Shown here: positions 8,895 to 55,540 of the stretch, in pieces
Numbering within the stretch: the stretch's first letter is position 1
Layout of the letters: each line of letters begins with the position of its first letter
IMG/VR virus record: IMGVR_UViG_3300045988_099631
Span: 32,001-96,000 of that record
DNA: 64,000 nucleotides
Strand: one strand, 5' to 3'
Source of the DNA: a virus
Notes under the pieces: model-generated
What the model saw: the letters and a program-made list of their open reading frames with translations, nothing else
Databases searched by the model: none
Told to the model about the DNA's origin: nothing
Translations under genes and position numbers: made by a program

Positions 8895-9138
8895 TTTTCA
8901 CCGAATCCTTTTCCTGCAGCGGATTTATGAGCGTCATATTTTCACGCATTTCATTCCTGAGTTTTGTATATCCCGGCATATTTGGTGTCTGTTCCTCTGC
9001 GCAAACTTGGTGTATGCAATACCCGCGTATGAAATAGCTGCCATCGTCGAAATAGAACGCTTCTTCGTCCAGTATTTCTTCTCCGCACAGTTGGCAGTGT
9101 GTGCTAAAAGCCTTGTCACGATATTCTTTTAACATCAT
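8881..9138 (-). CDS. hypothetical Cys/His-containing protein (paralogue of 8643-8894)
   Basis: Contains CQLCGEEILDEE...YCIHQVC. Confidence 0.4.
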   Translation of the reverse strand: MMLKEYRDKAFSTHCQLCGEEILDEEAFYFDDGSYFIRGYCIHQVCAEEQTPNMPGYTKLRNEMRENMTLINPLQEKDSVKNDGV

Positions 9139-9685
9139 TCTCTCCTTCCAGATTTCCGGCGCTCCCCATGCGAATCGACTGCAAGAGGGCCTGTACTTCC
9201 TGCGGTAATTTTGTCTGTTCGCGTTCTCTCTGCTGAACCATTCTAAACGACCGTTGGATATTTGATGCTACAACGCTTTGCAGAGAATCAGTATCCAGCA
9301 ATGCCCACTCACTAAGCTGTTGTGGGCTGCCAACAATACGCTGAAGCGTAGGACTCAGTTTGCTGAATTCCTCTTGCGCTCCATATATACCATTCCGGCA
9401 CGCAGCAGATATTTTGGCCCACGCCTCCATTTCGGAAAGGTCATCATCCTGCATCAGTTTTCTCATTTGTTCCTTGATTGTTCCGATATTTGGTGGAAAC
9501 TCTCGGTTGCTTGCTACGATGATAGATTTCACTGCCGCTGCAACAAGCCTTGGGTCATCATCTGTGAACATTGAAGCCCACAAGTTGAGCGTATCGGTTA
9601 CATCTGAATCCGATACATTCCGGTAGAAGTTTGGATAGGCCGTTCGTAGCACAGCAAGGATTTTTCTTGTTTCGTCTCTTGTCAT
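9116..9685 (-). CDS. G39P-like replicative helicase loader
   Basis: The N-terminus (ETRKILAVLRTAYPNFYRNV...LWASMFTDDDPRLVAAAVKSII...FPPNIGTI) fits the SPP1 G39P family pattern. It directly follows the replisome organizer. Confidence 0.55.
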   Translation of the reverse strand: MTRDETRKILAVLRTAYPNFYRNVSDSDVTDTLNLWASMFTDDDPRLVAAAVKSIIVASNREFPPNIGTIKEQMRKLMQDDDLSEMEAWAKISAACRNGIYGAQEEFSKLSPTLQRIVGSPQQLSEWALLDTDSLQSVVASNIQRSFRMVQQREREQTKLPQEVQALLQSIRMGSAGNLEGENDVKRIS

Positions 9686-10575
9686 ATGTCCTCCCGTAAA
9701 AATGGATTGCTGCTGGACGCTTCGCGTGTGGATTGCGTTGCCGGTTGTGCTTTTCGGTCAAGCCATTCCCACACTATTCCTTGATAATTCGACGCCATGG
9801 TGCGTTCAATAACATCATTGACTGCCTGTGCTCCGTACTGGGCTACCTTCTTTTTCACCACCGTCATCAAAGACTGTAAGCCACGAGGGGTGTAGAATTC
9901 TTTGCGCTCGGTTTTGTATTCAAGCCAATTCTGCATTTGTACTTGAACCAGCGAAGGCAGCTTAGACATAGCCGCGCTGATCTCATCGGAAACTGGCTGC
10001 GTTTTTCCTCCCCTTTCCCCCGTACCCCCTTTTCCTTCTTTTTCTTTATTACTAGAAGTAGAACTAGAATTAGAAATAGAATTAGAAATAGAATAAGAGG
10101 GTAGATGTGCTGTAGATGTTCCTGTAGATTCTACATCTGACTTTGCATTATCGCTTGTATCTTCTGATTTCAGTTTCTTTGACAGCCGCCATTTTGCTTG
10201 GCTAATTCTTTTTTGTTCTCGGATTTTTGCCAGTTTATCTTCATTCTGATACATCATCCAATTCGACAGGAGGTATATATCGTCAATGATTTCAACCATG
10301 CCCTCATTGATGAAGAATTTCATACAGAGATCCAATTCTTCCGGTGTTCGATCAATCATGACCGCTATATCGCTGATTGACTGAAACGGAATTTCCCTTG
10401 AATTTATGAGGAATCCGGAGTGATTGCATTTGCCGGCGAAGTCCAGCAACTCAAACCACACAGCCGTCAGTTTATCGCGGAAGCTCTCGCCACCGATTTT
10501 GGCTTTTTTGATTTTCTTGAAGCTCTCACCGTCAAACATTCCGACTTTGAGCTTAATCCATTGAACGTTATCCAT
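9682..10575 (-). CDS. phage replisome organizer (SPP1 G38P-like)
   Basis: WIKLKVGMFDGESFKKIKK...KLTAVWFELLDFAGKCNHSGFL, which is the Phage_rep_org_N pattern. It has a low-complexity S/N/T linker and a C-terminal DnaD-like region. Confidence 0.75.
   Translation of the reverse strand: MDNVQWIKLKVGMFDGESFKKIKKAKIGGESFRDKLTAVWFELLDFAGKCNHSGFLINSREIPFQSISDIAVMIDRTPEELDLCMKFFINEGMVEIIDDIYLLSNWMMYQNEDKLAKIREQKRISQAKWRLSKKLKSEDTSDNAKSDVESTGTSTAHLPSYSISNSISNSSSTSSNKEKEGKGGTGERGGKTQPVSDEISAAMSKLPSLVQVQMQNWLEYKTERKEFYTPRGLQSLMTVVKKKVAQYGAQAVNDVIERTMASNYQGIVWEWLDRKAQPATQSTREASSSNPFLREDI
10022..10140. repeat. origin-like iteron block inside the replisome-organizer gene (copy A)
   Basis: Three GTAGAT boxes at 10101, 10112 and 10124, next to AGAAATAGAATTAGAAATAGAA and a pyrimidine tract. 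The 45-nt core 10091-10135 matches 35807-35851 at 42/45 by my alignment. Confidence 0.6.
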
Positions 10576-10771
10576 AGGTTCGAACTTCCGGCGCAACAAA
10601 TGTGGGCTTTGCCAACACCCAATATCCTTTTCTAGCTGCGATGTCCATGATGCCCCCAAGTTCTTCCTCAGTTAGCATTCCCAAGTCAATCATCGGCGCT
10701 TCTGGATCAGCAAAATTCCCCAAACTTTCATCGGCAAAAATTCTTGTTTCAAACTTCAAAGTCATTTGCAA
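10568..10771 (-). CDS. hypothetical protein
   Basis: 67-aa ORF between ssb and the organizer. Confidence 0.4.
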   Translation of the reverse strand: MQMTLKFETRIFADESLGNFADPEAPMIDLGMLTEEELGGIMDIAARKGYWVLAKPTFVAPEVRTYG

Positions 10772-14178: not shown

Positions 14179-17100
14179 TCAGATTACATCGAACAGGCAC
14201 AGATTGTCGTTCTGCTGAGACTCGTCAAACTCCTTCAGGTAGCCGACCGCATCGCGGAAGTAGTCATTATTGAGTTCAATGGTGTAGCCATGTCTGCCGG
14301 CCTTGATGGCTTCCAGCGCAACCGTTCCAAGTCCACCAAACGGGTCAAGCACCAAATCCCCCGGATTACTGTACCGGTTGATAAGCCTGTCAACGATGTC
14401 CAGCTGGAGGGGACAATTTTTCACAACGCACCCTTCTGCTGTATAGCTGGCATCGTCAGCAACACGAATGCTCCACGTTTCAGCGGTTCCTGCATCATCC
14501 ACAGATTTCACGCGCTTCCATGCGCCATCGTCAAGAATGCTGCCGAAATGATGTGTGCCGTTCCTCCAGCTTAAAACCCATAGCTGTTTCTGATTGACTT
14601 CGCGGCCAGCAATGGTATGCTTCCCCGCACGTTTCCCTGCAAATACCGAGGGGATAACGCCCAACGCACGCTGCGCAACCATGGCCATTCCAAGCATCAA
14701 GGCTCTCGAAACGGAGCACGCCATCGTTGCATTTCCAGCCTTGCTGCCGTCTCCGGACAGGTATCCATCAAGAAGCGATTTTGCCAACTCTGGATTCAGG
14801 CAAATTCCCTCAATAGGAACTTGCTTGTTTTCTGCTCTACGTCCGCATTTACGCAGGATTCCTTTCATGTTTTCTGACATTGCGCTGGAACGCAATCTGT
14901 ATTGGATGGCATCTCGTACCGCGCAGGAGCCAAAATATCCTTGTGCCATTTCCTCAAACATAGCCGATTTGGCTTTTCCGACGCTGATAAACCAGTCTCC
15001 ATATGTCCCAACATGTCCATCTGCAAGGTAACGGCCAACAATCCACCATTCTTGAGCGGTTAGATTGCTATCCTCGCAGGCAGGAAGTTTCAGGTTGACC
15101 CATCCGCCAGCTGTATCTTTTGCCTCGGTCCATTCTGGTTCTGTCTTAGGCATATAGTCCTTGCTGCGGATGTAATTATTCTTTCTCGTCCAGAGTTTGT
15201 GATTGGGTGTGGTAATCAGATTTGCCACGCCTTGAGCCTTGGTCTGAACAACAGGGTTCACACCGGTGCAGCGCTTTGCGATAACCGGTTTCCAGTTTCC
15301 CGTATGGGTCAGTACCATATCTCCAATTGAAATATCTTCAATTGGCTTATATCCATCCCTGGTCAATACGAGGCTCCCCTTTGCCAAACAAACATGGTTC
15401 TCTTTTCTGCGCTGGCTCTGCGTTGTATTGAGCGTCCGCATTCGGTTGATATCGTCCCATACCTGATCTGTCCAGCTTCCGGGCGCAACTACCATGAACG
15501 TGGCTGGCAGATGCCCGTCCTTGTCAAGCTCTTTCGCCAGTTTTACATGCTCGTCATAGCTGTAAACGGAATCACGGCTGTATTTCCTATAAATTGCTTG
15601 CAACTTTCCCGTGTCGGTATGCAGCAGTTCGTCTTTCGTAATCAGCCGATTTCCGGAACTGCGCCAGAACCCGTGTGCGTCGATCTGCCATTGAGCGCGT
15701 GTGTATTCGTCCTTCGTCTTGGATACGCGCTCATCCGCATATGCTTTGGAGCGGTCGGTTGGAAGCTTCCGGAATAGCAAGATGTACTCCGGGCAGCCGA
15801 CGCCCATTTTTGTCCCGTCCTTGCACTGCTCAGACCATCCGAGCCGGTACGTCTGGTTGTTCTCTCGAACGACGTCCGTAACGACCGTAATCATGCCGAA
15901 ATATGCAAATCCATGCTCCATATAGTGCTTAATGCACATAGCATGAAATGGTTCCATCGTCGGCATACCAGTCCCTGTCGCATTGCCGAAAAGAACACGG
16001 TCTTTCACATGGCAGCAGAATACACGTCCTGGTTTCAGAATTCTTAGAAGGTTCGGCGTCAGATAGTCCATCTGCTCAAAGAACTTTTCCGTATCCTCGT
16101 TGTGTCCGAAATCGTTATAGCTCGGCGTATATTCGTAATGATTGGAAAACGGGATGGACGTAACGATCAGATCTGTGCTGTTGTCTGCCATTTTCGCCGT
16201 TTCCTCGCAGCAGTCGTTGTTGACCGCGATCCAGTTCTTTCCTCTGATCTCCATTCTCTCAACTCCTATGCTTCTGGCCATTTCCTGCTTCATGCGGTCG
16301 CCGGAAAGGCCGTATTTTTTTACGATTTCCCGCATCTGCTCCTGCATATAGTCATGCTGCTTCCATTTTTTCTGCAAAACGTCCCAAATCGGGATCTCTG
16401 CCTCCGTATAGATGATGTCCACAATGACCTTCTCCGTCTGCAAGAAGCGGTAGCAGCGGTGGATCGCCTGAATGAAGTCGTTGAATTCATAGTCAATCCC
16501 GACGAAGATCATTCTGTGGCAATGCCTCTGGAAATTGCAGCCCTGACCAGAAAGCTCTTTCTTCGTAGCGAAGATTCGGATTTTTCCGTCGGAGAAATCA
16601 ATGACGCGCCGTTCGCGCTCGTCATAGTCCATTGTTCCGTAGATCTCTACGGCCTCTGGTATCGCGCGGTGTATCTCATGTCGTTCCGCTTCGAGGTCAT
16701 GCCAGAGGATAAAGCTTGCCTCCGGATCGCTGTCAACGATCTCCTTCGCCATCTGTACGCGTGCAGTAATTGTCTCGCGCTTTTCCCGCGATGCCTCCTG
16801 AAGGTTCGTGGCAGAATCGTTCATCATCTTCACTTGACCATCCCGGTCCGTGATCTTTCCGAATTCGTCGTGAACAACATGCGTTCTAACTTCGAGTCCA
16901 GGAAGTTCATATCCCTCGTCAGAATATCCGAGGTCTGACGGTTTTCCAAGGAACAGCGCCCACGAGCTGACCCACAGCCAGAATTCTTCTTCACGGTGGG
17001 GATAAAGGGTCAGGTTGTTGGCCTTTGTGCTGTCCCGCTTGAAGAACCGTGTAAGGGCCTGTCCGGTGTCCATGACTTCGAGATATCCTGCATAGTGAAT

Positions 17101-17655
17101 GATCTCCTTATACCTGTTCGGAGCCGGTGTGGCCGTTGCGACCATCTTATATTTGACACCCTTGAACTTCTGAAGGAACGTCTGATAGGTCTTGCTTCCG
17201 AATGAGCGAAGTACCGATGCTTCGTCAAGGCTCGTCGCCGCGAAGTACGCCGGGTCGATATCCCCGTCCCGGACACGCTCATAGTTGGTAAGCATGATCT
17301 CCGCTCCGGCGTTCTCGCGTACCTCCTGCATCGTCCGTACATAAACCGGTTCTTCGTATCCCAGAATATTCACGGCGTCCCGTTTGAACTCCTGCCGCAC
17401 GCCGAGTGGCAGCACAATCAACGCTGGCCTTCCTTCATGTTTCGCGGCATGATGGCAGAACTCCAGTTCCTGTACAGTTTTACCTAATCCGAAACTCTCG
17501 AAGAGAGCTCTTCTGCCGCCGCGCAGCGCCCAACGTACCGCATCCCTCTGATGCGGCTTCAGCGCCAGATTGATATCTTCCTCTGGAACGGAAAAGCCGC
17601 TCACCGGAGCCGTCTCGATTTTTGATTTCAGAAATTCCAAGTATTTGCTGTTCAT
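14179..17655 (-). CDS. SNF2-type helicase / N6- or N4-DNA methyltransferase fusion, interrupted by an intein
   Basis: Helicase motifs GLGKT and SLDEAS. Methylase motif IV-like DLIVTSIPFS and motif I DPFGGLGT. 1158 aa including a 325-aa insertion. Confidence 0.8.
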   Translation of the reverse strand: MNSKYLEFLKSKIETAPVSGFSVPEEDINLALKPHQRDAVRWALRGGRRALFESFGLGKTVQELEFCHHAAKHEGRPALIVLPLGVRQEFKRDAVNILGYEEPVYVRTMQEVRENAGAEIMLTNYERVRDGDIDPAYFAATSLDEASVLRSFGSKTYQTFLQKFKGVKYKMVATATPAPNRYKEIIHYAGYLEVMDTGQALTRFFKRDSTKANNLTLYPHREEEFWLWVSSWALFLGKPSDLGYSDEGYELPGLEVRTHVVHDEFGKITDRDGQVKMMNDSATNLQEASREKRETITARVQMAKEIVDSDPEASFILWHDLEAERHEIHRAIPEAVEIYGTMDYDERERRVIDFSDGKIRIFATKKELSGQGCNFQRHCHRMIFVGIDYEFNDFIQAIHRCYRFLQTEKVIVDIIYTEAEIPIWDVLQKKWKQHDYMQEQMREIVKKYGLSGDRMKQEMARSIGVERMEIRGKNWIAVNNDCCEETAKMADNSTDLIVTSIPFSNHYEYTPSYNDFGHNEDTEKFFEQMDYLTPNLLRILKPGRVFCCHVKDRVLFGNATGTGMPTMEPFHAMCIKHYMEHGFAYFGMITVVTDVVRENNQTYRLGWSEQCKDGTKMGVGCPEYILLFRKLPTDRSKAYADERVSKTKDEYTRAQWQIDAHGFWRSSGNRLITKDELLHTDTGKLQAIYRKYSRDSVYSYDEHVKLAKELDKDGHLPATFMVVAPGSWTDQVWDDINRMRTLNTTQSQRRKENHVCLAKGSLVLTRDGYKPIEDISIGDMVLTHTGNWKPVIAKRCTGVNPVVQTKAQGVANLITTPNHKLWTRKNNYIRSKDYMPKTEPEWTEAKDTAGGWVNLKLPACEDSNLTAQEWWIVGRYLADGHVGTYGDWFISVGKAKSAMFEEMAQGYFGSCAVRDAIQYRLRSSAMSENMKGILRKCGRRAENKQVPIEGICLNPELAKSLLDGYLSGDGSKAGNATMACSVSRALMLGMAMVAQRALGVIPSVFAGKRAGKHTIAGREVNQKQLWVLSWRNGTHHFGSILDDGAWKRVKSVDDAGTAETWSIRVADDASYTAEGCVVKNCPLQLDIVDRLINRYSNPGDLVLDPFGGLGTVALEAIKAGRHGYTIELNNDYFRDAVGYLKEFDESQQNDNLCLFDVI
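14416..15390 (-). other. intein (325 aa) with LAGLIDADG homing-endonuclease domain
   Basis: Starts with CLAKGSLVLTRDG (block A). Also has TPNHKLWT (block B), WWIVGRYLADGHV and LLDGYLSGDGS (two LAGLIDADG motifs). Ends in GCVVKN followed by Cys+1. Removing it joins ENHV to CPLQLDIVDRLI just upstream of DPFGGLGT. Confidence 0.8.
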
Positions 17656-31013: not shown

Positions 31014-31736
31014 TTAAGCCTGCGCAAGGTAGCGGGCGCGTATCTTATCGATTCGGCGTTGAACGGCGCTTTTGCTCATGCCAAGGGCGGCGGCAATGGT
31101 GCGGACGGTGTGCCCGTCGGCAAGTGCTCGGATGATTGCGCGGTCGGTGCTGTCAGTGGCTGCGGCCTCGATGGCGGCGCGGATAATGGCGGCATCTTCG
31201 GGGCTGCTGCTGACGGGGGCGGCTGTGACGCTTGGCAGGTAGTCGAGCGGTGTTTGTGTGCAGTCGTCGCCGTCCGCGTCGGCGGCGCTGGTGAGTTGGC
31301 AGCAGTTGGACGCGTGCCGGTACTCGGCGCGGCTGATGACGTGCGTTGCCTGGGTGCAGGCTGCAAAGAGTATGTGCGTAAGGGTGTGCGGCTCGTCGCT
31401 TTGCTCGTTGCGCGTGAGGGCAGGCGCGACGCGGGGCCATGCCTCGGCTGCGACGGTCTGCGCGTCGTCCGGGGTGCGTATCCATTCTGTATCGATTCCG
31501 CGTCCGGTGGCCTCGGCGCGGTGCTTGACGGTCCACGCCATGCGGATCAGCGCGGTATACTGTTCCTCGCCGCTCATGTTGTCCCACACGCGGCGGGCTG
31601 CTGTGGCGGCTTTGGCGGTTCTGTGCGCCTCTTTCAGGCAGATGGCAAACTGGGCGCGGCTGCGGGTCTCGGGGTACTCTGCGACGGTGGCGCGGTACAG
31701 GCTCCATGCCTGCCGCATGATCTGGGCTTTACTCAT
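31014..31736 (-). CDS. sigma-70 region-4-like HTH protein (candidate phage sigma or transcription factor)
   Basis: The C-terminus (DRAIIRALADGHTVRTIAAALGMSKSAVQRRIDKIRARYL) resembles sigma region 4.2. RBS AAAGGAG. Lies in the GC-rich island. Confidence 0.45.
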   Translation of the reverse strand: MSKAQIMRQAWSLYRATVAEYPETRSRAQFAICLKEAHRTAKAATAARRVWDNMSGEEQYTALIRMAWTVKHRAEATGRGIDTEWIRTPDDAQTVAAEAWPRVAPALTRNEQSDEPHTLTHILFAACTQATHVISRAEYRHASNCCQLTSAADADGDDCTQTPLDYLPSVTAAPVSSSPEDAAIIRAAIEAAATDSTDRAIIRALADGHTVRTIAAALGMSKSAVQRRIDKIRARYLAQA

Positions 31737-31833: not shown

Positions 31834-32013
31834 TCAGAAGCTCGGCTGTAGCTTGATCTCCCAACGGCCGCAAATGTCGCCTGCGGCGTTTTTCTCGGCC
31901 TTTTTCAGGGCCTTTTCGATTGCTGCCGCTTTGTTGGGTGCGCTCACGGTAAATGCTTGGTGCTTGCCGCCATTATCCACGCAGCGGAAAGCGAACTTGT
32001 AGTTGCTGCTCAT
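31834..32013 (-). CDS. hypothetical protein (59 aa)
   Basis: Trimmed to MSSNYKFAFRCVDNGG with a GGAGGTGAG RBS. Confidence 0.4.
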   Translation of the reverse strand: MSSNYKFAFRCVDNGGKHQAFTVSAPNKAAAIEKALKKAEKNAAGDICGRWEIKLQPSF

Positions 32014-41015: not shown

Positions 41016-41091
41016 ATTTCCGCGAGGCCACGAAAATGGTTGAAAACCAAGAAAACCAGAGCCATCCACGTTCGGACGGTTCTGGTTTTCA

Positions 41092-41119
41092 TTGACACAT
41101 TCAGTTTTTGCGGTATAAT
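41092..41119 (+). promoter_or_regulatory. consensus sigma-A promoter (TTGACA-16-TATAAT) for an antisense RNA
   Basis: Hexamers at 41092-41097 and 41114-41119. There is no ORF downstream on the plus strand. Confidence 0.55.
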
Positions 41120-41125
41120 GAAGGA

Positions 41126-41370
41126 AAAGGGGCGCTGCCACAAGCGGTCAGCCAAGGATGCCTATGGGATTTGACCTAACCTTTATGCTGATGGCGGTCA
41201 TTTCTTTTTGCAGATCTGAACAATCAAACCCGCAAATGCGATGAGTACGGTGGAGAACGAGAAGATCTCAGTCCATGTAGCCATGCGCAACACCTCCTTT
41301 ATAGGAAGTGCCGACCGTCTGCCACCTCCATGCAGCGCCCCGCCCACCGGAAGGTGGGCTTTTTTATTTT
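41126..41370 (+). ncRNA. candidate type I antitoxin RNA (antisense to the toxin ORF)
   Basis: Runs from the consensus promoter to the terminator GCCCACC ggaa GGTGGGC plus T-run (41342-41370). It fully overlaps the minus-strand toxin ORF. Confidence 0.45.
41198..41284 (-). CDS. candidate type I toxin, 28-aa hydrophobic peptide (holin-like-toxin / Fst-like class)
   Basis: MATWTEIFSFSTVLIAFAGLIVQICKKK. RBS AAAGGAGGTG. Own promoter TTGACA-17-TAAAAT on the minus strand at 41366-41394. Confidence 0.5.
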   Translation of the reverse strand: MATWTEIFSFSTVLIAFAGLIVQICKKK

Positions 41371-41420
41371 AACGGTACAATAACATAATGTCAACAAACC
41401 AAGAAAATTTAAGGGCAGGC

Positions 41421-41489: not shown

Positions 41490-42257
41490 ATGAAAAAGAT
41501 TGTTTGCGTACTCGTTTCTTTTGTTCTCGCATTGTCTATGGCTGCTTGTACAGTCAAATCCAAGCCATCTGCCACGCCGCAAGAAGAAAAAGCGCCCCTT
41601 CCAGCACAGGCCGAATCAGACAACAGTCAAAAAGTGAGCGATGAATTGGCCAGTAAGATTGAAATAACGGATTCCTTGTTGGATGAAGCATTGGAAAGTG
41701 TAGACCACAATCACTATTATAACGAAAGAACCGGTGAATACGAATTCAGCGTTCATATTTTTGGTTCCACAGAAATGGCATCTTTAGGAACCCTTCAAAA
41801 TGTGTGCGACGCTCTTGACGGTTCCTCTGCTTCTACGCACGAGTTTCTGGGAATCGACGTTGTAGGGCGCATTTACGATTCTGACGTAGTGGTGTATGAG
41901 TCCAGAAATGGAATTGGAAAATTCATGGTCGATGGAGCTGCTTCAAGTGCGCTATCATCTTCCGGTGCTACGATGGGAGAGCGTAACGCTCTGGAAAGTG
42001 CAAAGTCATACTTGAAGTATTCCGCGTTCTCCTATTCAGGGCTGATCGACCAACTCGAATACGAGGGGTATTCAACGTCAGAAGCAACTTACGCGGTCGA
42101 TCATTGCGGAGCCGACTGGAATGAACAAGCTGTGCTTTCTGCCGCTTCGTATCTCAAATATTCTTCTTTCTCAAAACAAGGGTTAATTGAACAACTGGAA
42201 TACGAAGGATTCACGCATGATCAGGCCGTGTACGGCGTTGAACATAATGGTTACTAA
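41490..42257 (+). CDS. Ltp-family surface lipoprotein (superinfection exclusion)
   Basis: Signal peptide with lipobox (LALSMAAC). Two C-terminal Ltp repeats (AKSYLKYSAFSYSGLIDQLEYEGYSTSEATYAV and ASYLKYSSFSKQGLIEQLEYEGFTHDQAVYGV). Confidence 0.75.
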   Translation: MKKIVCVLVSFVLALSMAACTVKSKPSATPQEEKAPLPAQAESDNSQKVSDELASKIEITDSLLDEALESVDHNHYYNERTGEYEFSVHIFGSTEMASLGTLQNVCDALDGSSASTHEFLGIDVVGRIYDSDVVVYESRNGIGKFMVDGAASSALSSSGATMGERNALESAKSYLKYSAFSYSGLIDQLEYEGYSTSEATYAVDHCGADWNEQAVLSAASYLKYSSFSKQGLIEQLEYEGFTHDQAVYGVEHNGY

Positions 42258-42269
42258 ACATGAAAGAGA

Positions 42270-42297
42270 GCCGCCCATACGGGCGGCTTTTTCTTTT
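42270..42297 (+). terminator. rho-independent terminator
   Basis: GCCGCCC atac GGGCGGC followed by TTTTTCTTTT. Confidence 0.65.
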
Positions 42298-42427: not shown

Positions 42428-43768
42428 TTATTTTAAAAAAGCGTATAGGATTTCAGCGTGGATATTCTCCCGCCTAACCTTTGCGTGAATTGAACTAGGC
42501 TGTATTTCCACTATTTCAGCATGATATGTCATGCCTGCGTCCATCTTCGGTGCGTAGACAGCCGCCCAATCTCCAGAAATATGACCAACTGGGAATCCAC
42601 AGGAGTTTTTCACTAATATTGCATTTTTGTCGTATTTGTTTTCGGGTTCTCGTTCAAGAATAAGCGAGTCACCGACAGTGAGATTTTTCAAGGTGTCTTT
42701 ACTGGCGCAGAATTTCATTCCTACAATACTCACAGTTTCCACAACCAGTTTCGCCTTTTCATTTCCTTCCCATCCGGCTATTTGTCCAGAGTATTTAGAT
42801 TGGATTGTATAGTACATATCGCTGTCCAGAGGTAGCACCGTTAGCTCCGGGTGATTTTTTTGCAATAACATAACCTTTTTGCGGCTTTCGTTTCCCCAAT
42901 AGCCTTTTACTTCTACAATAACGCTATTCGGCAAGAAAAAATCCGGTGTATAGCATAGTCCTTCCCCAAGATCAAACATTTCTCGTTCATATTCGTATGG
43001 AATATGTTTTGACCTCAAGAGCCTAGCAATATTAGCTTCCCACGAACTGCGCAGCGCTTGATCGAGGTCTATCCGAAAGCCTATGTTATATTTCTGAGAT
43101 TTATAGTCATCATAGCTTGTAGTTACAATCCGGATTTTACCGCGTTCATCTATGACCTCGATGCACGGAACCCCATTCCTGTGTAGAATTTCTTCTACAG
43201 GCTTGTTGTGATTACTATGCTGCACAAACCATCGTGCGAAGCAATCATCCTCTTTTCGGAGAGTATATGACCAATCAGGTGTATTTGGAACCTGAGCAAT
43301 TTCTACATTTTCTCCGCAGTATTTCTTACAAATAGCAGTCACCGTCTGTACATAGTTGCTTGGAAAACATATGTAGTTATATGTTTTCGTCAAATCACAG
43401 ATATAAGGTATTGAATCTATACTTTCCCAAGTGCGGTCCCCCCATAATTTTCTTTTTACGGATACAGAAAATTCATCATGTTCGTGCAGGTAGTTACGGA
43501 AAATGTCTCTATACTCGGCAAAAAACCAATCATCGTTTTCGTTGCGACGACGTATATCGACATACCGAATAATCGATATTCCGTCTTCGCTTCGTATGAC
43601 ATTTAGAAACCTAGCGTTATTTCTATGGAGCAAATCAAGATATCTTGCAAGCAATTCGTTTGGAACTTGGTCTGTATGTTCCCATATAAAATACTGCTCA
43701 GTTTTTACACCATATTCAGATTCAATGCACTGCGCCAGCATTTCTCCAACGTGCGTTTCCTTTTCCAT
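42428..43768 (-). CDS. PD-(D/E)xK nuclease plus C-terminal HIRAN-domain protein (candidate defence moron)
   Basis: SWEANIARLL...IPYEYE...YTPDFFLPNSVIVEVKGYW, which is a D...E-x-K nuclease core. The C-terminus (IVGMKF...LTVGDSLILEREPENKYDKNAILVKN...PVGHISGDWAAVYAPKMDAG) is a HIRAN pattern. Opposite strand and visibly AT-richer than its neighbours. Confidence 0.6.
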   Translation of the reverse strand: MEKETHVGEMLAQCIESEYGVKTEQYFIWEHTDQVPNELLARYLDLLHRNNARFLNVIRSEDGISIIRYVDIRRRNENDDWFFAEYRDIFRNYLHEHDEFSVSVKRKLWGDRTWESIDSIPYICDLTKTYNYICFPSNYVQTVTAICKKYCGENVEIAQVPNTPDWSYTLRKEDDCFARWFVQHSNHNKPVEEILHRNGVPCIEVIDERGKIRIVTTSYDDYKSQKYNIGFRIDLDQALRSSWEANIARLLRSKHIPYEYEREMFDLGEGLCYTPDFFLPNSVIVEVKGYWGNESRKKVMLLQKNHPELTVLPLDSDMYYTIQSKYSGQIAGWEGNEKAKLVVETVSIVGMKFCASKDTLKNLTVGDSLILEREPENKYDKNAILVKNSCGFPVGHISGDWAAVYAPKMDAGMTYHAEIVEIQPSSIHAKVRRENIHAEILYAFLK

Positions 43769-43835
43769 AAAATTTCCTCCGTTCAATGTTCAAACAATTT
43801 TTATCAGCGATAGAATTCGTTCGTATTCTTCGAGC

Positions 43836-43863
43836 GGGACAAATCACATATTTCGTGTAGATA
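43836..43863 (+). promoter_or_regulatory. class-B promoter 12 (GGGACA-16-TAGATA)
   Basis: Followed by a second, sigma-A-like promoter TTGACA-17-TATCAT at 43895-43923. Confidence 0.5.
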
Positions 43864-43946
43864 GAAAAATAGAGAGATTTTCTTGAATCGTGTATTGACA
43901 TTATCGTGCAATCGTGTTATCATGTTTGCGTAAGGAGGTGTGATAA

Positions 43947-44090
43947 GTGGCAGAAAAAAATATCGGCATCAAGGTTGACGCAGAACTGTACAAGAAGATC
44001 AAAATCAAGATTGCGCAAGAGGGAATCACTCTAAAAGAATACATTCTGAAATTGATTCAAAAAGACCTTGAACTCGAATCCGATAAATAA
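43947..44090 (+). CDS. small ribbon-helix-helix protein (47 aa, GTG start, below the track cutoff)
   Basis: Hand-found VAEKNIGIKVDAELYKKIKIKIAQEGITLKEYILKLIQKDL. RBS AAGGAGGTG. Confidence 0.5.
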   Translation: MAEKNIGIKVDAELYKKIKIKIAQEGITLKEYILKLIQKDLELESDK

Positions 44091-44264
44091 AAACACCCCC
44101 TTCTCTGCGGCTAGTTTGCCGACCGGCGCAAAGAAGGGAGCTGCCCGAAAATACCCGCATGACATGGGGATACTTTACGGTTTTTTCATTATACCGTGAT
44201 TACATTCCCCTGTCAATCCAAATTTGATAGGGGGATTTTTATATTTCCCGGAAAGGATTACACG

Positions 44265-45038
44265 ATGAAGCTGCAAGTTACCACGAACAACGGCATTGAG
44301 GTTTTAGACAGCCGAGAAGTCGCACAGGCTATCGAAATCCGGCACGCGGATTTGCTTGAAAAAATCAACACCTACAGCGATTTTTTAGCCAACGGAAAAT
44401 TCCGTTCGCTGGATTTCTTTGTTCCGAGCGACTATGTTGACGCTCAAGGGAAAACTCGCCCGCGATACCTTCTCACGCGCAAGGGCTGCGACATGGTAGC
44501 GAACAAGATGACCGGTGAAAAAGGTGTTCTGTTCACTGCGGCATACGTCACAGCGTTTGAGGAAATGCAGAAGCGCTTGAAAACGTCACCCTCCCCTGCC
44601 GAGCAGTTACTTGCGCAAGCACAGCTTATGGTAGATCAGGAGCGCCGCATCGCCGCTCTTGAAACCGGCCAGACGCAGATGCGCGACACAATGAGCACGG
44701 CGTTCTCCGCACTCGCTTCCCCTACTGTCAGCCGCGACCATTGGCAGGATGAAACGCGACAGAAAATCCGCCGGGTCTGTTTTGAAAACGGCCTGAATTA
44801 TCAGCAGTTTACCGCACAGACCTATGACGAGCTGGAAGCGGATGCGCGTGTAAAGCTCGAAACCCGCGTGAATAATCAGCGGGAGCGGATGAAAGCAGGC
44901 GGTGCGAAGTCCGCCGAAATTCAGGCGGTAAACAAGCTGACCGTTATTGCAGCAGACCCGAAACTTCGTGCAATCTACTCTGCAATCATTCAGCGCCATT
45001 CGGCGCAGTTCTTAACCGAAAGATTTTCTAACATGTGA
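44265..45038 (+). CDS. Rha-family phage regulatory protein / antirepressor
   Basis: IEVLDSREVAQAIEIRHADLLEKI...RPRYLLTRKGCDMVANKMTGEKG...AYVTAFEEM. Confidence 0.7.
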   Translation: MKLQVTTNNGIEVLDSREVAQAIEIRHADLLEKINTYSDFLANGKFRSLDFFVPSDYVDAQGKTRPRYLLTRKGCDMVANKMTGEKGVLFTAAYVTAFEEMQKRLKTSPSPAEQLLAQAQLMVDQERRIAALETGQTQMRDTMSTAFSALASPTVSRDHWQDETRQKIRRVCFENGLNYQQFTAQTYDELEADARVKLETRVNNQRERMKAGGAKSAEIQAVNKLTVIAADPKLRAIYSAIIQRHSAQFLTERFSNM

Positions 45039-45367: not shown

Positions 45368-46471
45368 ATGGAATATTCCTACAAATTTAGGCTGTGCCCA
45401 AATGCGGCTCAGAGAAACTTAATACAGCGCACTTTCGGCTGTGCTCGATTTGTGTATAACCACTTTCTTTCTGAACGCATTGCGCAGTATCGAGAAACTG
45501 GGAAATCTCCTACACGATTTCAGCAGGATAAGGAACTCACTGTACTCAAGCAGAAACTCGGATGGCTGCAAGAGCCAGATAAATGCGCCTTGCAAAATGC
45601 TGTGAGGAATTTAGACGCCGCATATAAGAACTTTTTTCGCCGAGTAAAGAACGGTGAGAAGCCCGGTTTTCCAAAGTTCAAAAGCAAGCGCAACCACAGA
45701 CAGAGCTATAAGTCAAATGGTAGCATCAGAGTTTTTGACAATGCAGTTCAACTGCCGAAACTGGGAAAAGTCAAATGCCGTATCAGTCGAAAGGTTGAGG
45801 GTAGAATCCTCTCTGCCACAGTATCACAGAATCCAAGCGGCAAATATTTCGTATCACTCTGCTGCACTGACGTTGAAATCGAGCCATTGCCGAAGACCGG
45901 TGCTGTGATCGGCGTTGATATGGGACTGAAAGCGTTCGCAATCACGTCCGAAGGGATGGAATACCAGAACCAGCGCTATTTAGCCAAGAACCAGAAGAAA
46001 CTTGCCAGATTGCAACGGCAACTCTCCCGAAAATCAAAGGGGAGTAACCGGCGCGAAAAAGCGAGGATTCAGGTGGCACGGCTGCATGAGCATATCACAA
46101 ACCAGCGCAGCGACATGATGCACAAGCTGTCAACACAGCTCATTCGTGAGAATGATGTGATCTGCATCGAAGACTTAGAACCGAAGAACATGGTCAAGAA
46201 CCATAATCTAGCGAAGTCTATCAACGACGCAGCGTGGGGCGAGTTCAGGCGGCAGCTGGAGTACAAGGCCGCGTGGTACGGGAAGAAAGTCATACAGATT
46301 GACCGGTTCTTCCCTTCTAGCCAGTTATGTTCCTGCTGCGGGTATCGGAATACCGATACGAAGAATCTGGCCGTGCGTGAATGGACGTGCCCTGAATGTG
46401 GGATACACCATGACCGGGATGTAAATGCCGCAAAGAACATTTTGAGTGAGGGCTTGCGCCTGTTGGCCTAG
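45368..46471 (+). CDS. tnpB: TnpB RNA-guided endonuclease (OrfB_IS605 plus zinc ribbon)
   Basis: N-terminus [13 protein letters not shown]. RuvC residues in [14 protein letters not shown] and [11 protein letters not shown]. Zinc finger CSCCGY...CPECG. Confidence 0.85.
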
Positions 46472-50372: not shown

Positions 50373-51461
50373 ATGGGATTTCCAAGCGCCTATGAAAAAT
50401 TCCGGTCAGCAATGATTGCATACGAAGAAAACCTTCGAGCGATAGGCCGTTCTGAAACAACAATTCAAAACGAAGAGTTTGTGTTCAAAATGTTTTCCGA
50501 TTTCATGCTGGAAAACAAATTGTGGGACAGACGCGAAGAAAGCTTCACGGACATTCAAGCATGGCGAGATCAGCTGCGTAGGGATGGCAAGAAACCAACT
50601 ACAATCAGGCAATACCTGACGGTTCTTTCCGCACTCTACAATTTCGCTTCATCTGACGAATTGGGGGAAAACCGATGGTATGACAGAAATCCAGTTTCAA
50701 AACTCCTGATGCCAGACACAAGGAAATTGGAGAAACGCCCGTATGATCAGCTTCTGACCGACGAACAGGTTTTGCTGCTATGGAGGAATAATCCACCGAA
50801 AGGACTCAAGCGTCCATATCTCTGGCCGAGAAACTACGCCATTGTTATTTTGCTTCTGACAACAGAAATCAGAAACAGTGAACTTCTGGTGCTCACGCCG
50901 AACGACTTGGATTGGGAAAACTCGGAGCTGACCGTTGAGCACGGAAAGGGAGACAAGTTCCGCCCAGTTGACTTCCCTATTCTTGCGCAGACAGCCGTTC
51001 GTATGTACTTAAATAGCGGAATCCGGCCTGAGACCGCTGGAAATAGCGGCCCACTTTTCGGGACAGAAGCAACCTTCGAGTTTAAGGGTGACAATAAGGG
51101 TGAGGAATGGCACGCAGGGACTCGGCAATGGCTGTCAGACGTCGTTCGGAGGCATGTAAAGGCTGTCACTGGTGTAGACATGATTCGTTCCCACGATCTG
51201 CGGCATGTCGGAGCAAGGCTCGATCTGAACAGTGGAATGACTTTTGAGGAACTGCAAGCAAAGCTTGGACATGAGTCAGTTTCAACTACGCAGATCTATT
51301 CAGGCAAGCTGACAAGCCGCAAGAACAGACGCATGACCAAGGCGGTACAAGAAGAAAAAGAACGTCAGGCGCAGAGAAATATAGACCGTTTGGAGGCAGC
51401 GGGAGATAATTTTTTCGGAAATCTCCGGTTGAAACAGATTCCCCAGCCGGAGATAGCCTAA
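50373..51461 (+). CDS. tyrosine recombinase / integrase 2 (XerC/D-like)
   Basis: SAM-like N-domain. Catalytic RNSEL...HGKGDKFR...HDLRHVGA...LGHESVSTTQIYSG. Confidence 0.8.
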   Translation: MGFPSAYEKFRSAMIAYEENLRAIGRSETTIQNEEFVFKMFSDFMLENKLWDRREESFTDIQAWRDQLRRDGKKPTTIRQYLTVLSALYNFASSDELGENRWYDRNPVSKLLMPDTRKLEKRPYDQLLTDEQVLLLWRNNPPKGLKRPYLWPRNYAIVILLLTTEIRNSELLVLTPNDLDWENSELTVEHGKGDKFRPVDFPILAQTAVRMYLNSGIRPETAGNSGPLFGTEATFEFKGDNKGEEWHAGTRQWLSDVVRRHVKAVTGVDMIRSHDLRHVGARLDLNSGMTFEELQAKLGHESVSTTQIYSGKLTSRKNRRMTKAVQEEKERQAQRNIDRLEAAGDNFFGNLRLKQIPQPEIA

Positions 51462-51775: not shown

Positions 51776-51849
51776 GTGCGTGTAGTTTAATGGCAGAACC
51801 TCAGACTTCCAATCTGATGGTGGGAGTTCGATTCTCCTCACGCACTCCA
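51776..51849 (+). tRNA. tRNA-Gly (anticodon TCC), CCA encoded
   Basis: Hand fold: acceptor GTGCGTG/CACGCAC, anticodon arm TCAGA-CTTCCAA-TCTGA, T-arm GGGAG-TTCGATT-CTCCT. Confidence 0.8.
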
Positions 51850-54407: not shown

Positions 54408-54484
54408 AGGGGTATCGCCAAGCGGTCTAAGGCATGGGACTTTGACTCCCATATTCGCAGGTTCAAATCCTGCTACCCCTGCCA
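54408..54484 (+). tRNA. tRNA-Gln (anticodon TTG), CCA encoded
   Basis: Hand fold: acceptor AGGGGTA/TACCCCT, anticodon arm TGGGA-CTTTGAC-TCCCA, T-arm GCAGG-TTCAAAT-CCTGC. Confidence 0.8.
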
Positions 54485-55465: not shown

Positions 55466-55540
55466 GGGCCGTTAGCTCAACGGTAGAGCAAGCCGCTCAT
55501 AACGGCTCGGTCGTAGGTTCGACACCTACACGGCCCACCA
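55466..55540 (+). tRNA. tRNA-Met/Ile2-type (anticodon CAT), CCA encoded
   Basis: Hand fold: acceptor GGGCCGT/ACGGCCC, D-arm GCTC-AACGGTA-GAGC, anticodon arm AGCCG-CTCATAA-CGGCT, T-arm GTAGG-TTCGACA-CCTAC. Confidence 0.85.

Follow-up and report, generated by a model that had tools for sequence, protein, structure and literature searches.

The endoI-HIRAN gene is located at positions 42428..43768 on the minus strand of a 64,000 nt stretch of viral DNA (IMG/VR record IMGVR_UViG_3300045988_099631, positions 32,001 to 96,000), the whole of which is termed the window below. It is a complete open reading frame (ORF) of 446 aa with an ATG start. Its product consists of an N-terminal region without recognised relatives, a nuclease domain of the T7 endonuclease I type and a C-terminal HIRAN domain. 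The sequence GGAGGA is found 7 nt 5' of the ATG, and proteins of equal length that are 98–100% identical to the endoI-HIRAN protein are present in other samples. Counted from an upstream in-frame TTG at 43786, the reading frame would extend over 42428..43786 (minus strand); this TTG is a less likely start. An initial annotation, made from the letters of the window, had described the gene as a moron and a candidate for anti-phage defence. Comparative genomics supports this proposal, in that the gene is an accessory, low-GC cassette and a positional allele of the defence gene SNIPE.

The gene is visibly AT-richer than its surroundings, as had been stated. Its GC content is 40.6%, compared with 48.5% in the 4-kb flanks and 49.6% in the whole window, and 500-nt windows across the gene fall to 0.38–0.42. 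Between about 34 and 52 kb the AT skew is positive, i.e., indicative of plus-strand coding, with 42–44 kb as the only negative stretch. The endoI-HIRAN gene is the only sizeable minus-strand gene of this plus arm. The initial annotation had given the arm a length of 25 kb; by AT skew it is about 18 kb, and the isolated position of the gene within it stands. A Pfam scan of the competing minus-strand ORFs of the plus arm gave no matches; an HTH protein at 31014–31736 was matched and is outside the arm.

Both ends of the gene are bordered by putative transcription signals. A terminator-like hairpin with a 12-bp stem that includes 7 G-C pairs is present at 42265..42292, between the convergent Ltp and endoI-HIRAN genes. 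It is bidirectional, with a T-run on the plus strand and a call on the minus strand as well. On the other side, promoter scan, repeats and sequence delimit a divergent control region (43769..43946) that is common to endoI-HIRAN and a small RHH gene. The predicted weak endoI-HIRAN promoter must also be located here, and TGATAAAAA, about 30 nt 5' of the ATG, is perhaps its extended -10 element.

The nuclease domain is at aa 236–330 (42779..43063, minus strand). The segment YTPDF...VEVKG, previously noticed as a nuclease core of the PD-(D/E)xK type, is real and can now be assigned to the T7 endonuclease I family. Pfam Phage_endo_I (PF05367) matches aa 236–311 with an E value of 3.1e-14 and 53.3 bits (cut-off 29.1) over profile positions 12–90 of 149. 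PHROG 945, annotated as 'endonuclease', is matched with an E value of 3.8e-18. PHROG 9019, which is annotated as a Holliday junction resolvase, is matched as well, and a sequence search of the PDB finds T7 endonuclease I (1m0d) at 7.5e-13. When aligned with 1m0d, SWE(244), YTPD(276)F and VE(286)VK(288)G fall on E20, D55, E65 and K67 of the T7 enzyme. The catalytic residues E244, D276, E286 and K288 are invariant across 16 full-length homologues (alignment A1); in a core alignment of 19 members the catalytic E, D and K show no variation and E286 almost none. The C-terminal third of T7 endonuclease I is unmatched in the endoI-HIRAN protein. Branched DNA, four-way junctions included, is the substrate of T7 endonuclease I, which acts as a domain-swapped dimer. 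The nuclease domain is a homologue of this enzyme, i.e., a predicted nuclease with selectivity for branched DNA.

The HIRAN domain follows at aa 346–428 (42485..42733, minus strand). What had been seen as a HIRAN pattern at the C-terminus is borne out by both profile and fold. Pfam HIRAN (PF08797) matches with an E value of 1.4e-15 and 57.3 bits (cut-off 24.7). Foldseek matches the domain to lp_0118 (3k2y, E value 7e-6, TMt 0.85) and to the HIRAN domain of human HLTF (4xzg, TMt 0.65, root mean square deviation (rmsd) 1.6 Å); over all HIRAN matches the E values are 7e-6 to 1e-4 and the rmsd 1.5–3.9 Å. The motif EREPENKYDKNAI aligns with QRDPNNPYDKNAI of HLTF, and the pocket motif PxNxYDxNAI is kept. 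Within this motif, KYDKNAI of the endoI-HIRAN protein aligns with PYDKNAI of HLTF in the predicted 3'-end pocket, and the HLTF pocket residues Y93 and D94 are part of PYDKNAI. Residues D380, N382, G395 and H396 are invariant in the 16 full-length homologues. At stalled forks, HLTF uses the pocket of its HIRAN domain to bind the nascent strand by its 3'-OH end, and the domain described here is proposed to be a binder of 3'-OH DNA ends.

The N-terminal region (aa 1–232; 43073..43768, minus strand) is an orphan. The initial annotation had recognised nothing in this part of the protein, and in the present searches it had no match in Pfam, NCBIfam, PHROG or PADLOC models; an NCBIfam search with the endoI-HIRAN protein gave no hit. 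An AlphaFold2 model was made from the 16 homologues as a monomer, with an additional model of the N-domain only. The mean predicted local distance difference test (pLDDT) value is 83 and is about 90 for the N-terminal region, which is modelled as two tandem beta-alpha-beta-beta-alpha-beta units. Foldseek searches of the N-domain against PDB and BFVD returned no specific relative, only generic tandem ferredoxin/ACT/BMC-T-like matches with a TM of 0.2–0.3 and an rmsd of 13–20 Å. The model suggests an alpha/beta fold without an identifiable relative, and identity to an ACT domain is not claimed. No internal duplication of the N-domain was detected with hhalign (probability 2.6), nor was a relation to the SNIPE alleles (DUF4041; probability 0.1). 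The 446 aa protein has no hydrophobic segment, membrane anchor or coiled coil.

The two halves of the protein differ greatly in conservation. In the subfamily of the window's protein the median pairwise identity is 28.8% for the N-terminal half and 57.5% for the C-terminal half. The N-terminal half has the lower identity in 117 of 120 pairs and diverges about twice as fast. A profile of the N-domain compared with 1.84 billion representative proteins gave 8 matches, all of them in the endoI-HIRAN family. A widespread sensor that is shared with other effectors was considered for this domain and was rejected, because the profile finds only the endoI-HIRAN family. The region is proposed to be a specificity or regulatory module.

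The locus was compared in 32 contigs of sibling phages. These were gathered via a conserved DUF3560 gene 3 kb away, and the slot that was scored extends from DUF3560 to Rha. The slot contains endoI-HIRAN in 10 contigs, PD-Lambda-1/SNIPE in 9 and neither gene in at least 7, and the two genes never occur together (0/32). At least 16 sibling phages with matching flanking genes are without endoI-HIRAN and have SNIPE or unrelated genes in the slot. The SNIPE allele is a minus-strand gene of 438–507 aa, with slot and orientation identical to those of endoI-HIRAN. It is identified by the PADLOC model PD-Lambda-1 (E values 1.9e-150 and 1.1e-154) and by Pfam DUF4041 and T5orf172/MUG113. Both alleles have a GC content below that of the flanks. 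Most of the remaining contigs have plus-strand genes for a Zn-ribbon protein and a membrane protein, or only Ltp.

The boundaries of the cassette are sharp. Between contigs L041 (endoI-HIRAN) and L042 (SNIPE), identity is about 95% as far as the stop codon of the cassette gene, and homology resumes at Rha. Contigs L056 and L051 differ by a 1.4-kb indel, which represents the endoI-HIRAN ORF plus 33 and 68 bp. The endoI-HIRAN cassette is independent, of low GC content, on the opposite strand and with its own terminator, and it is present or absent among near-identical phages. The gene is a positional allele of PD-Lambda-1/SNIPE, a validated defence gene, and the two are interchangeable. Experiments have shown SNIPE, i.e., PD-Lambda-1, to be a defence nuclease that is localised at the membrane and cleaves the DNA of phages as it is injected (Saxton et al., Nature 2026, PMC13190303).

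A variant of 547 aa, P0007 (L053, positions 9054–10697, minus strand), has a coiled coil in its first ~100 aa that is 33% identical (E value 1e-13) to the N-terminus of the SNIPE allele. Another variant, P0006, retains a short remnant of a SNIPE-like leader (MELSDLFH...). Judged by its sequence, P0007 is a natural chimera of two unrelated defence nucleases, of which endoI-HIRAN is the candidate. The match of its coiled coil to the SNIPE allele shows that recombination between alleles has moved an N-terminal module between nucleases.

A third allele of the slot is a plus-strand pair of genes, found in L026 (9409–10991) and also in L027, L028, L031, L033 and L051. One gene encodes a Zn-ribbon protein of 228 aa, in which a serine-rich linker and a transmembrane (TM) segment are present; the product of the other is a membrane protein of 291 aa that contains a Cu_amine_oxidN1-like domain. 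PADLOC matches neither of them. This allele could be a further exclusion or defence module. A gene of the AcrVA2-like type (PF26125) is found in L003 (13255–14313, minus strand), 2 kb from the endoI-HIRAN gene of a sibling prophage; the accessory arm therefore holds defence as well as anti-defence genes.

The small RHH gene was considered as a partner or antitoxin of endoI-HIRAN. This was rejected because the presence of RHH is independent of slot content: the gene borders the slot with endoI-HIRAN, with SNIPE or with neither, and in some cases no RHH gene is detectable next to endoI-HIRAN. The RHH gene belongs to the adjacent anti-repressor operon and is outside the cassette.

Homologues that are 35–76% identical to the window's protein are present in other samples in a comparable setting. 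The gene is a lone opposite-strand gene that is divergent from a small RHH-type gene, and an anti-repressor gene follows. The anti-repressor is of the P22_AR_N, ORF6N or Rha type, an integrase is found 3–6 kb beyond it, and the genes on the other side vary. The core of endonuclease I and HIRAN, about 215 aa in length and with 35–65% identity, forms roughly 100 clusters in a collection of 5.8 billion proteins, and all clusters are from Firmicutes (Clostridia and Bacilli). Cultured carriers of homologues are Paenibacillus, Lysinibacillus, Ornithinibacillus, Neobacillus and Clostridium formicaceticum. Existing annotations of the homologues are limited to the names 'HIRAN domain-containing', 'DUF790 family' and 'topoisomerase zinc finger'.

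An N-terminal region of 110–384 aa precedes the core in all full-length members examined, and BLAST clustering separates these regions into at least 13 groups. Four of the groups have a remote relation to the type found in the window (hhalign probability 48–91%), and none was detectable for the others. Their variety includes TM helices (P0025, P0036), Zn-ribbons (P0041) and coiled coils. Membrane anchoring as a trait of the family was rejected, since TM helices are found in 2 of about 49 representatives, namely P0025 and P0036.

Distant members are found on other mobile elements. L012 is a serine-recombinase element with a type II restriction-modification system alongside, L014 is a Mob_Pre island with PDC-M11A, and L019 is an element that carries a NucC-like effector. 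A 58.6-kb conjugative Paenibacillus plasmid has a lone opposite-strand homologue between the relaxase operon and a Fic gene. The homologue contexts examined consist only of phages, plasmids and islands, several of them beside known or candidate defence genes. None of these contexts is a DNA-repair operon, which is the setting that the initial annotation had named as contrary to a defence role. No full-length relative was found among 50,697 sequenced phage records, where the only matches are to T7-like endonuclease I, with 22–30% query coverage. Many relatives that have endonuclease I only, without HIRAN, are fused to NUMOD3 (P0053, P0128, P0145, P0150, P0151, P0156, P0169). These fusions suggest that one branch of the T7 endonuclease I family may act as homing-type endonucleases.

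We propose that endoI-HIRAN is a single-gene, prophage-borne anti-phage (superinfection-immunity) nuclease that occupies a variable defence slot in temperate phages of gut Clostridia/Oscillospiraceae. The probability of this statement as a whole, weighted to the role, is about 0.6. That the gene functions in defence or in conflict between elements is in itself quite probable. The locus has the properties of hotspot cargo, i.e., it is accessory and compositionally distinct, its transcription is predicted to be autonomous, and its slot is common with that of a known defence gene. The adjoining Ltp gene, annotated as superinfection exclusion, also counts in favour of defence.

The specific mechanism, cleavage guided by 3' ends and branches, is put forward more tentatively. 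A lysogen would make a low level of the protein from the gene's own promoter. By analogy with T7 gp3, the T7 endonuclease I-type domain would dimerise. HIRAN would capture free 3'-OH ends. Where an injected genome is linear, its ends or 3' overhangs are candidates; in a replicating phage, so are the 3' ends of nascent strands at forks, in D-loops and at branches of concatemers. This binding would position the structure-selective nuclease, with a resulting cut of the invader DNA. The orphan N-domain may restrain the enzyme or direct it to a phage or host partner, and such a role would explain both the rapid evolution of the N-domain and the replacement of this module in relatives. In a speculative extension, endoI-HIRAN proteins might represent a new class of immune nucleases that distinguish an invader from self through DNA structure (a free 3'-OH end or the nascent strand at a branch, read via HIRAN) and not through sequence or modification, with N-terminal modules that are swapped, even with SNIPE, to retarget the enzyme.

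Several points weigh against the proposed defence function. T7 endonuclease I cuts any branched DNA, and the sparing of host forks is unexplained. The promoter scan found no good consensus for the endoI-HIRAN gene, so that expression in the lysogen is an assumption. Thirty of the 32 sibling contigs are from one metagenome study, and the allele counts are thus not independent samples. A selfish nuclease gene would also be cleanly present or absent at a fixed site. There is no whole-protein match to the known defence models of PADLOC-DB 2023. Finally, as there is no membrane anchor in the endoI-HIRAN protein, the entry-site action of SNIPE is not transferable to it.

The main mechanistic rival is abortive infection. 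Here the N-domain would keep the nuclease inactive until a phage trigger sets off indiscriminate cutting of host and phage forks and junctions, and the cell would die before progeny are formed. The positional and accessory evidence fits this scheme equally well, a branched-DNA nuclease combined with a binder of 3' ends at forks has no obvious way to discriminate host from phage, and the fast-evolving N-domain and the weak promoter would suit a trigger sensor and a toxic product, respectively. However, the cassette has no antitoxin or partner gene, the L056/L051 indel being the ORF only, and the allelic SNIPE cleaves incoming DNA directly and does not act via abortive infection (PMC13190303); we regard abortive infection as unlikely. 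We attach little weight to a further alternative, a selfish free-standing endonuclease of the homing type that would cut the empty site in co-infecting relatives and be copied into it with no benefit to the host. HIRAN and T7 endonuclease I read DNA structure and not sequence, and Pfam found no NUMOD, HTH or other sequence-reading module in the endoI-HIRAN protein. The precise presence or absence of one nuclease ORF at an intergenic site between conserved genes, with a break in phage homology, would nevertheless be expected of such an element. NUMOD3, a typical homing-endonuclease motif, is fused to endonuclease I-only relatives (P0053, P0128, P0145 and others), one report places nuclease genes at the boundaries of inter-phage genetic exchange (PMC10448857), and T5orf172, the nuclease domain of the alternative allele, is also found in phage homing-type nucleases. 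Against this, the gene is transcribed in opposition to the phage genes on either side, ends in a terminator of its own and adjoins lysogenic-conversion genes, the core is found on plasmids and islands adjoining defence genes, the N-termini of the family include TM helices and Zn-ribbons, and the slot allele is a proven defence gene.

The conservation of the complete catalytic set in a homologue of T7 endonuclease I, together with the annotation of PHROG 945 and 9019 as endonuclease and Holliday junction resolvase, would also fit a DNA-processing enzyme of the phage itself. Similar to T7 gp3, it would resolve branches in concatemers before packaging or break down host DNA in lytic growth, in a prophage that uses recombination functions such as RecT. 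This is very improbable. At least 16 siblings are without endoI-HIRAN, and the gene is therefore dispensable for this type of phage, which contradicts such a function. In addition, the gene is low in GC content, is encoded on the opposite strand and is not part of the replication arm, and the 50,697 phage records contain no full-length relative. A lysogeny-control protein was also considered. The P22 immI region consists of a divergent mnt gene and then arc-sar-ant, and a divergent gene, a small RHH gene, an anti-repressor gene (Rha/ORF6N/P22_AR_N) and, in the interval from RHH to Rha, a probable antisense RNA of the sar-like type form a comparable layout, in which endoI-HIRAN would have the position of Mnt and repress the anti-repressor operon. 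This was rejected as hardly credible, since the RHH/anti-repressor unit occurs with endoI-HIRAN, with SNIPE and with neither, no fold of a DNA-binding regulator was found in the N-domain, and the conserved parts are the nuclease and HIRAN.

The proposed defence nuclease can be compared with known proteins. In SNIPE homologues the N-terminus is the least conserved part and has been read as a specificity adaptor (PMC13190303). SNIPE and endoI-HIRAN are each encoded by a single gene in the same slot and on the same strand, and each has a variable N-terminal region, a DNA-binding part and a conserved nuclease. A minority of endoI-HIRAN relatives have N-terminal TM helices, and P0007 has the coiled coil of the SNIPE allele. 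However, the nuclease of SNIPE is of the GIY-YIG type and is combined with DUF4041, whereas endoI-HIRAN has a PD-(D/E)xK nuclease of the T7 endonuclease I type and HIRAN. The endoI-HIRAN protein has no PADLOC PD-Lambda-1 match and no Pfam DUF4041 or T5orf172 match and is therefore not a member of SNIPE. The SNIPE-like coiled coil is present only in P0007/L053, and the window's protein is without N-terminal membrane targeting.

T7 endonuclease I (gp3; 1m0d, 1fzr, 2pfj) has a homologous catalytic domain, and the equivalents of E20, D55, E65 and K67 are kept in endoI-HIRAN. The T7 protein differs in that it is a 149-aa stand-alone enzyme of a lytic phage, encoded next to a gene for single-stranded DNA-binding protein. 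In endoI-HIRAN the domain lacks the C-terminal part of the T7 enzyme, is located between a 232-aa orphan region and HIRAN, and is encoded in an accessory slot of a prophage. HLTF (4xzg, 4s0n) and the stand-alone bacterial protein lp_0118 (3k2y) have the HIRAN fold and the PxNxYDxNAI pocket motif in common with endoI-HIRAN. In HLTF the HIRAN domain guides a SNF2 fork-remodelling motor, whereas in the endoI-HIRAN protein it follows a nuclease. Prokaryotic HIRAN domains are still referred to as uncharacterised (2024 eLife, PMC11090510).

The only significant PADLOC match of the endoI-HIRAN protein is to PDC-M03B (E value 7.6e-9, aa 346–429), and this match covers only the HIRAN part; a match to PDC-S68 is marginal. 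PDC-M03 is a two-gene candidate system of HipA kinase and HIRAN, whereas the endoI-HIRAN cassette is a single ORF. No HipA gene is near endoI-HIRAN, whose neighbours are Ltp, RHH, Rha and TnpB, and the gene is thus not PDC-M03. Shedu (SduA) is a DUF4263 nuclease of the PD-(D/E)xK type, and its N-terminal domains, which vary, are sensors of free ends of DNA. As a working analogy only, Shedu resembles endoI-HIRAN as a single-protein PD-(D/E)xK nuclease with diverse N-terminal domains, in which self would be told from non-self by free DNA ends. It differs in that its nuclease is of another subfamily and that end recognition in endoI-HIRAN would be via the C-terminal HIRAN domain. PADLOC models of Shedu did not match the endoI-HIRAN protein at E values up to 1, which excludes it from Shedu. 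By analogy, endoI-HIRAN probably works most like SNIPE or Shedu, i.e., as a single-protein nuclease with a variable adaptor. A literature search found no description of an endonuclease I-HIRAN fusion as a defence gene. The defence library searched was PADLOC-DB 2023, and newer catalogues could already list this architecture.

If endoI-HIRAN is protective, it would be a defence system with a combination of domains that is absent from PADLOC-DB 2023. It would also offer a first lead on the function of prokaryotic HIRAN. If the proteins do discriminate by DNA structure, this would be a first function for prokaryotic HIRAN and would link the HIRAN domain of eukaryotic fork remodelling to an origin in phage-host conflict. 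In temperate phages of uncultured gut Clostridia the slot, which is immediately upstream of an anti-repressor operon of the Arc/Ant-like type, represents a hotspot of defence genes. SNIPE, endoI-HIRAN and the membrane/Zn-ribbon genes replace one another in it, and the slot can therefore be mined for further systems. As the chimera of SNIPE and endoI-HIRAN shows, an N-terminal adaptor region can pass from one nuclease effector to another that is unrelated to it. A compact nuclease that is guided to 3' ends at branched DNA could serve as a reagent. As homologues are present in cultured Firmicutes, the defence idea is directly testable.

The genes next to endoI-HIRAN are as the initial annotation had described them, by Pfam and PHROG. 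The Ltp lipoprotein gene is at 41490–42257 (plus strand; Pfam 7.7e-31, PHROG category 'superinfection exclusion'). On the other side are the RHH gene of 47 aa (43947–44090, plus strand) and then the Rha/anti-repressor gene (44196–45038, plus strand). The RHH promoter has TTGACA at 43895, a 17-nt spacer and TATCAT ending at 43923, with TG before the TATCAT. Exact direct repeats of AATCGTGT at 43886 and 43910 bracket the -35 and -10 elements, and a third ATCGTG is found between them. These repeats are likely operator sites, as candidates for autoregulation by the RHH protein.

A sigma-70 promoter with a 12/12 consensus (TTGACA, 17 nt, TATAAT) is present at 44216–44188 on the minus strand, between RHH and Rha, and points backwards. 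Its transcript of ~95 nt, within the region 44085–44216, has two hairpins with a delta G of -43.2 kcal/mol (z -3.8), and terminates with a strong stem and a U-tract just before the RHH stop codon. This promoter was considered as the endoI-HIRAN promoter and was rejected, as the transcript forms a terminator before the RHH gene. The transcript has the appearance of an antisense RNA of the sar type that is directed at the leader of the anti-repressor, and the RHH-sRNA-Rha unit would resemble the arc-sar-ant genes of P22 immI.

Directly after Rha is a TnpB gene (IS605 OrfB/Cas12f-like TNB; 45368–46471, plus strand). It is at the same place in siblings L026–L028 and L031 (96–98%) and in L046 and L047 (79%), and no TnpA was noticed. 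Beyond Ltp, a small minus-strand ORF of 49 aa at 41198–41347 resembles a type I toxin in that its C-terminal half is hydrophobic and rich in K. The ORF has on its flanks an 11/12 promoter on the minus strand (41394–41366), a 12/12 promoter on the plus strand (41092–41119) and a terminator on the plus strand (41342–41359). The 41062–41400 region fits a candidate type I toxin/antisense RNA pair, in line with the initial annotation.

The integrase gene (50373–51461) marks the end of the prophage together with a tRNA-Gly(TCC) at 51776, which follows the integrase gene at a distance of 315 nt and probably serves as the attachment site. Two further tRNA genes are tRNA-Gln at 54408 and tRNA-Met at 55466. 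The minus arm, at 1–30 kb, has genes for RecT, a replisome organiser and a SNF2-methylase. The last of these is a fusion of SNF2 helicase and N6_N4 DNA-methylase of 1158 aa (14179–17655, minus strand), which is interrupted by a Hint (intein) domain around aa 755–799.

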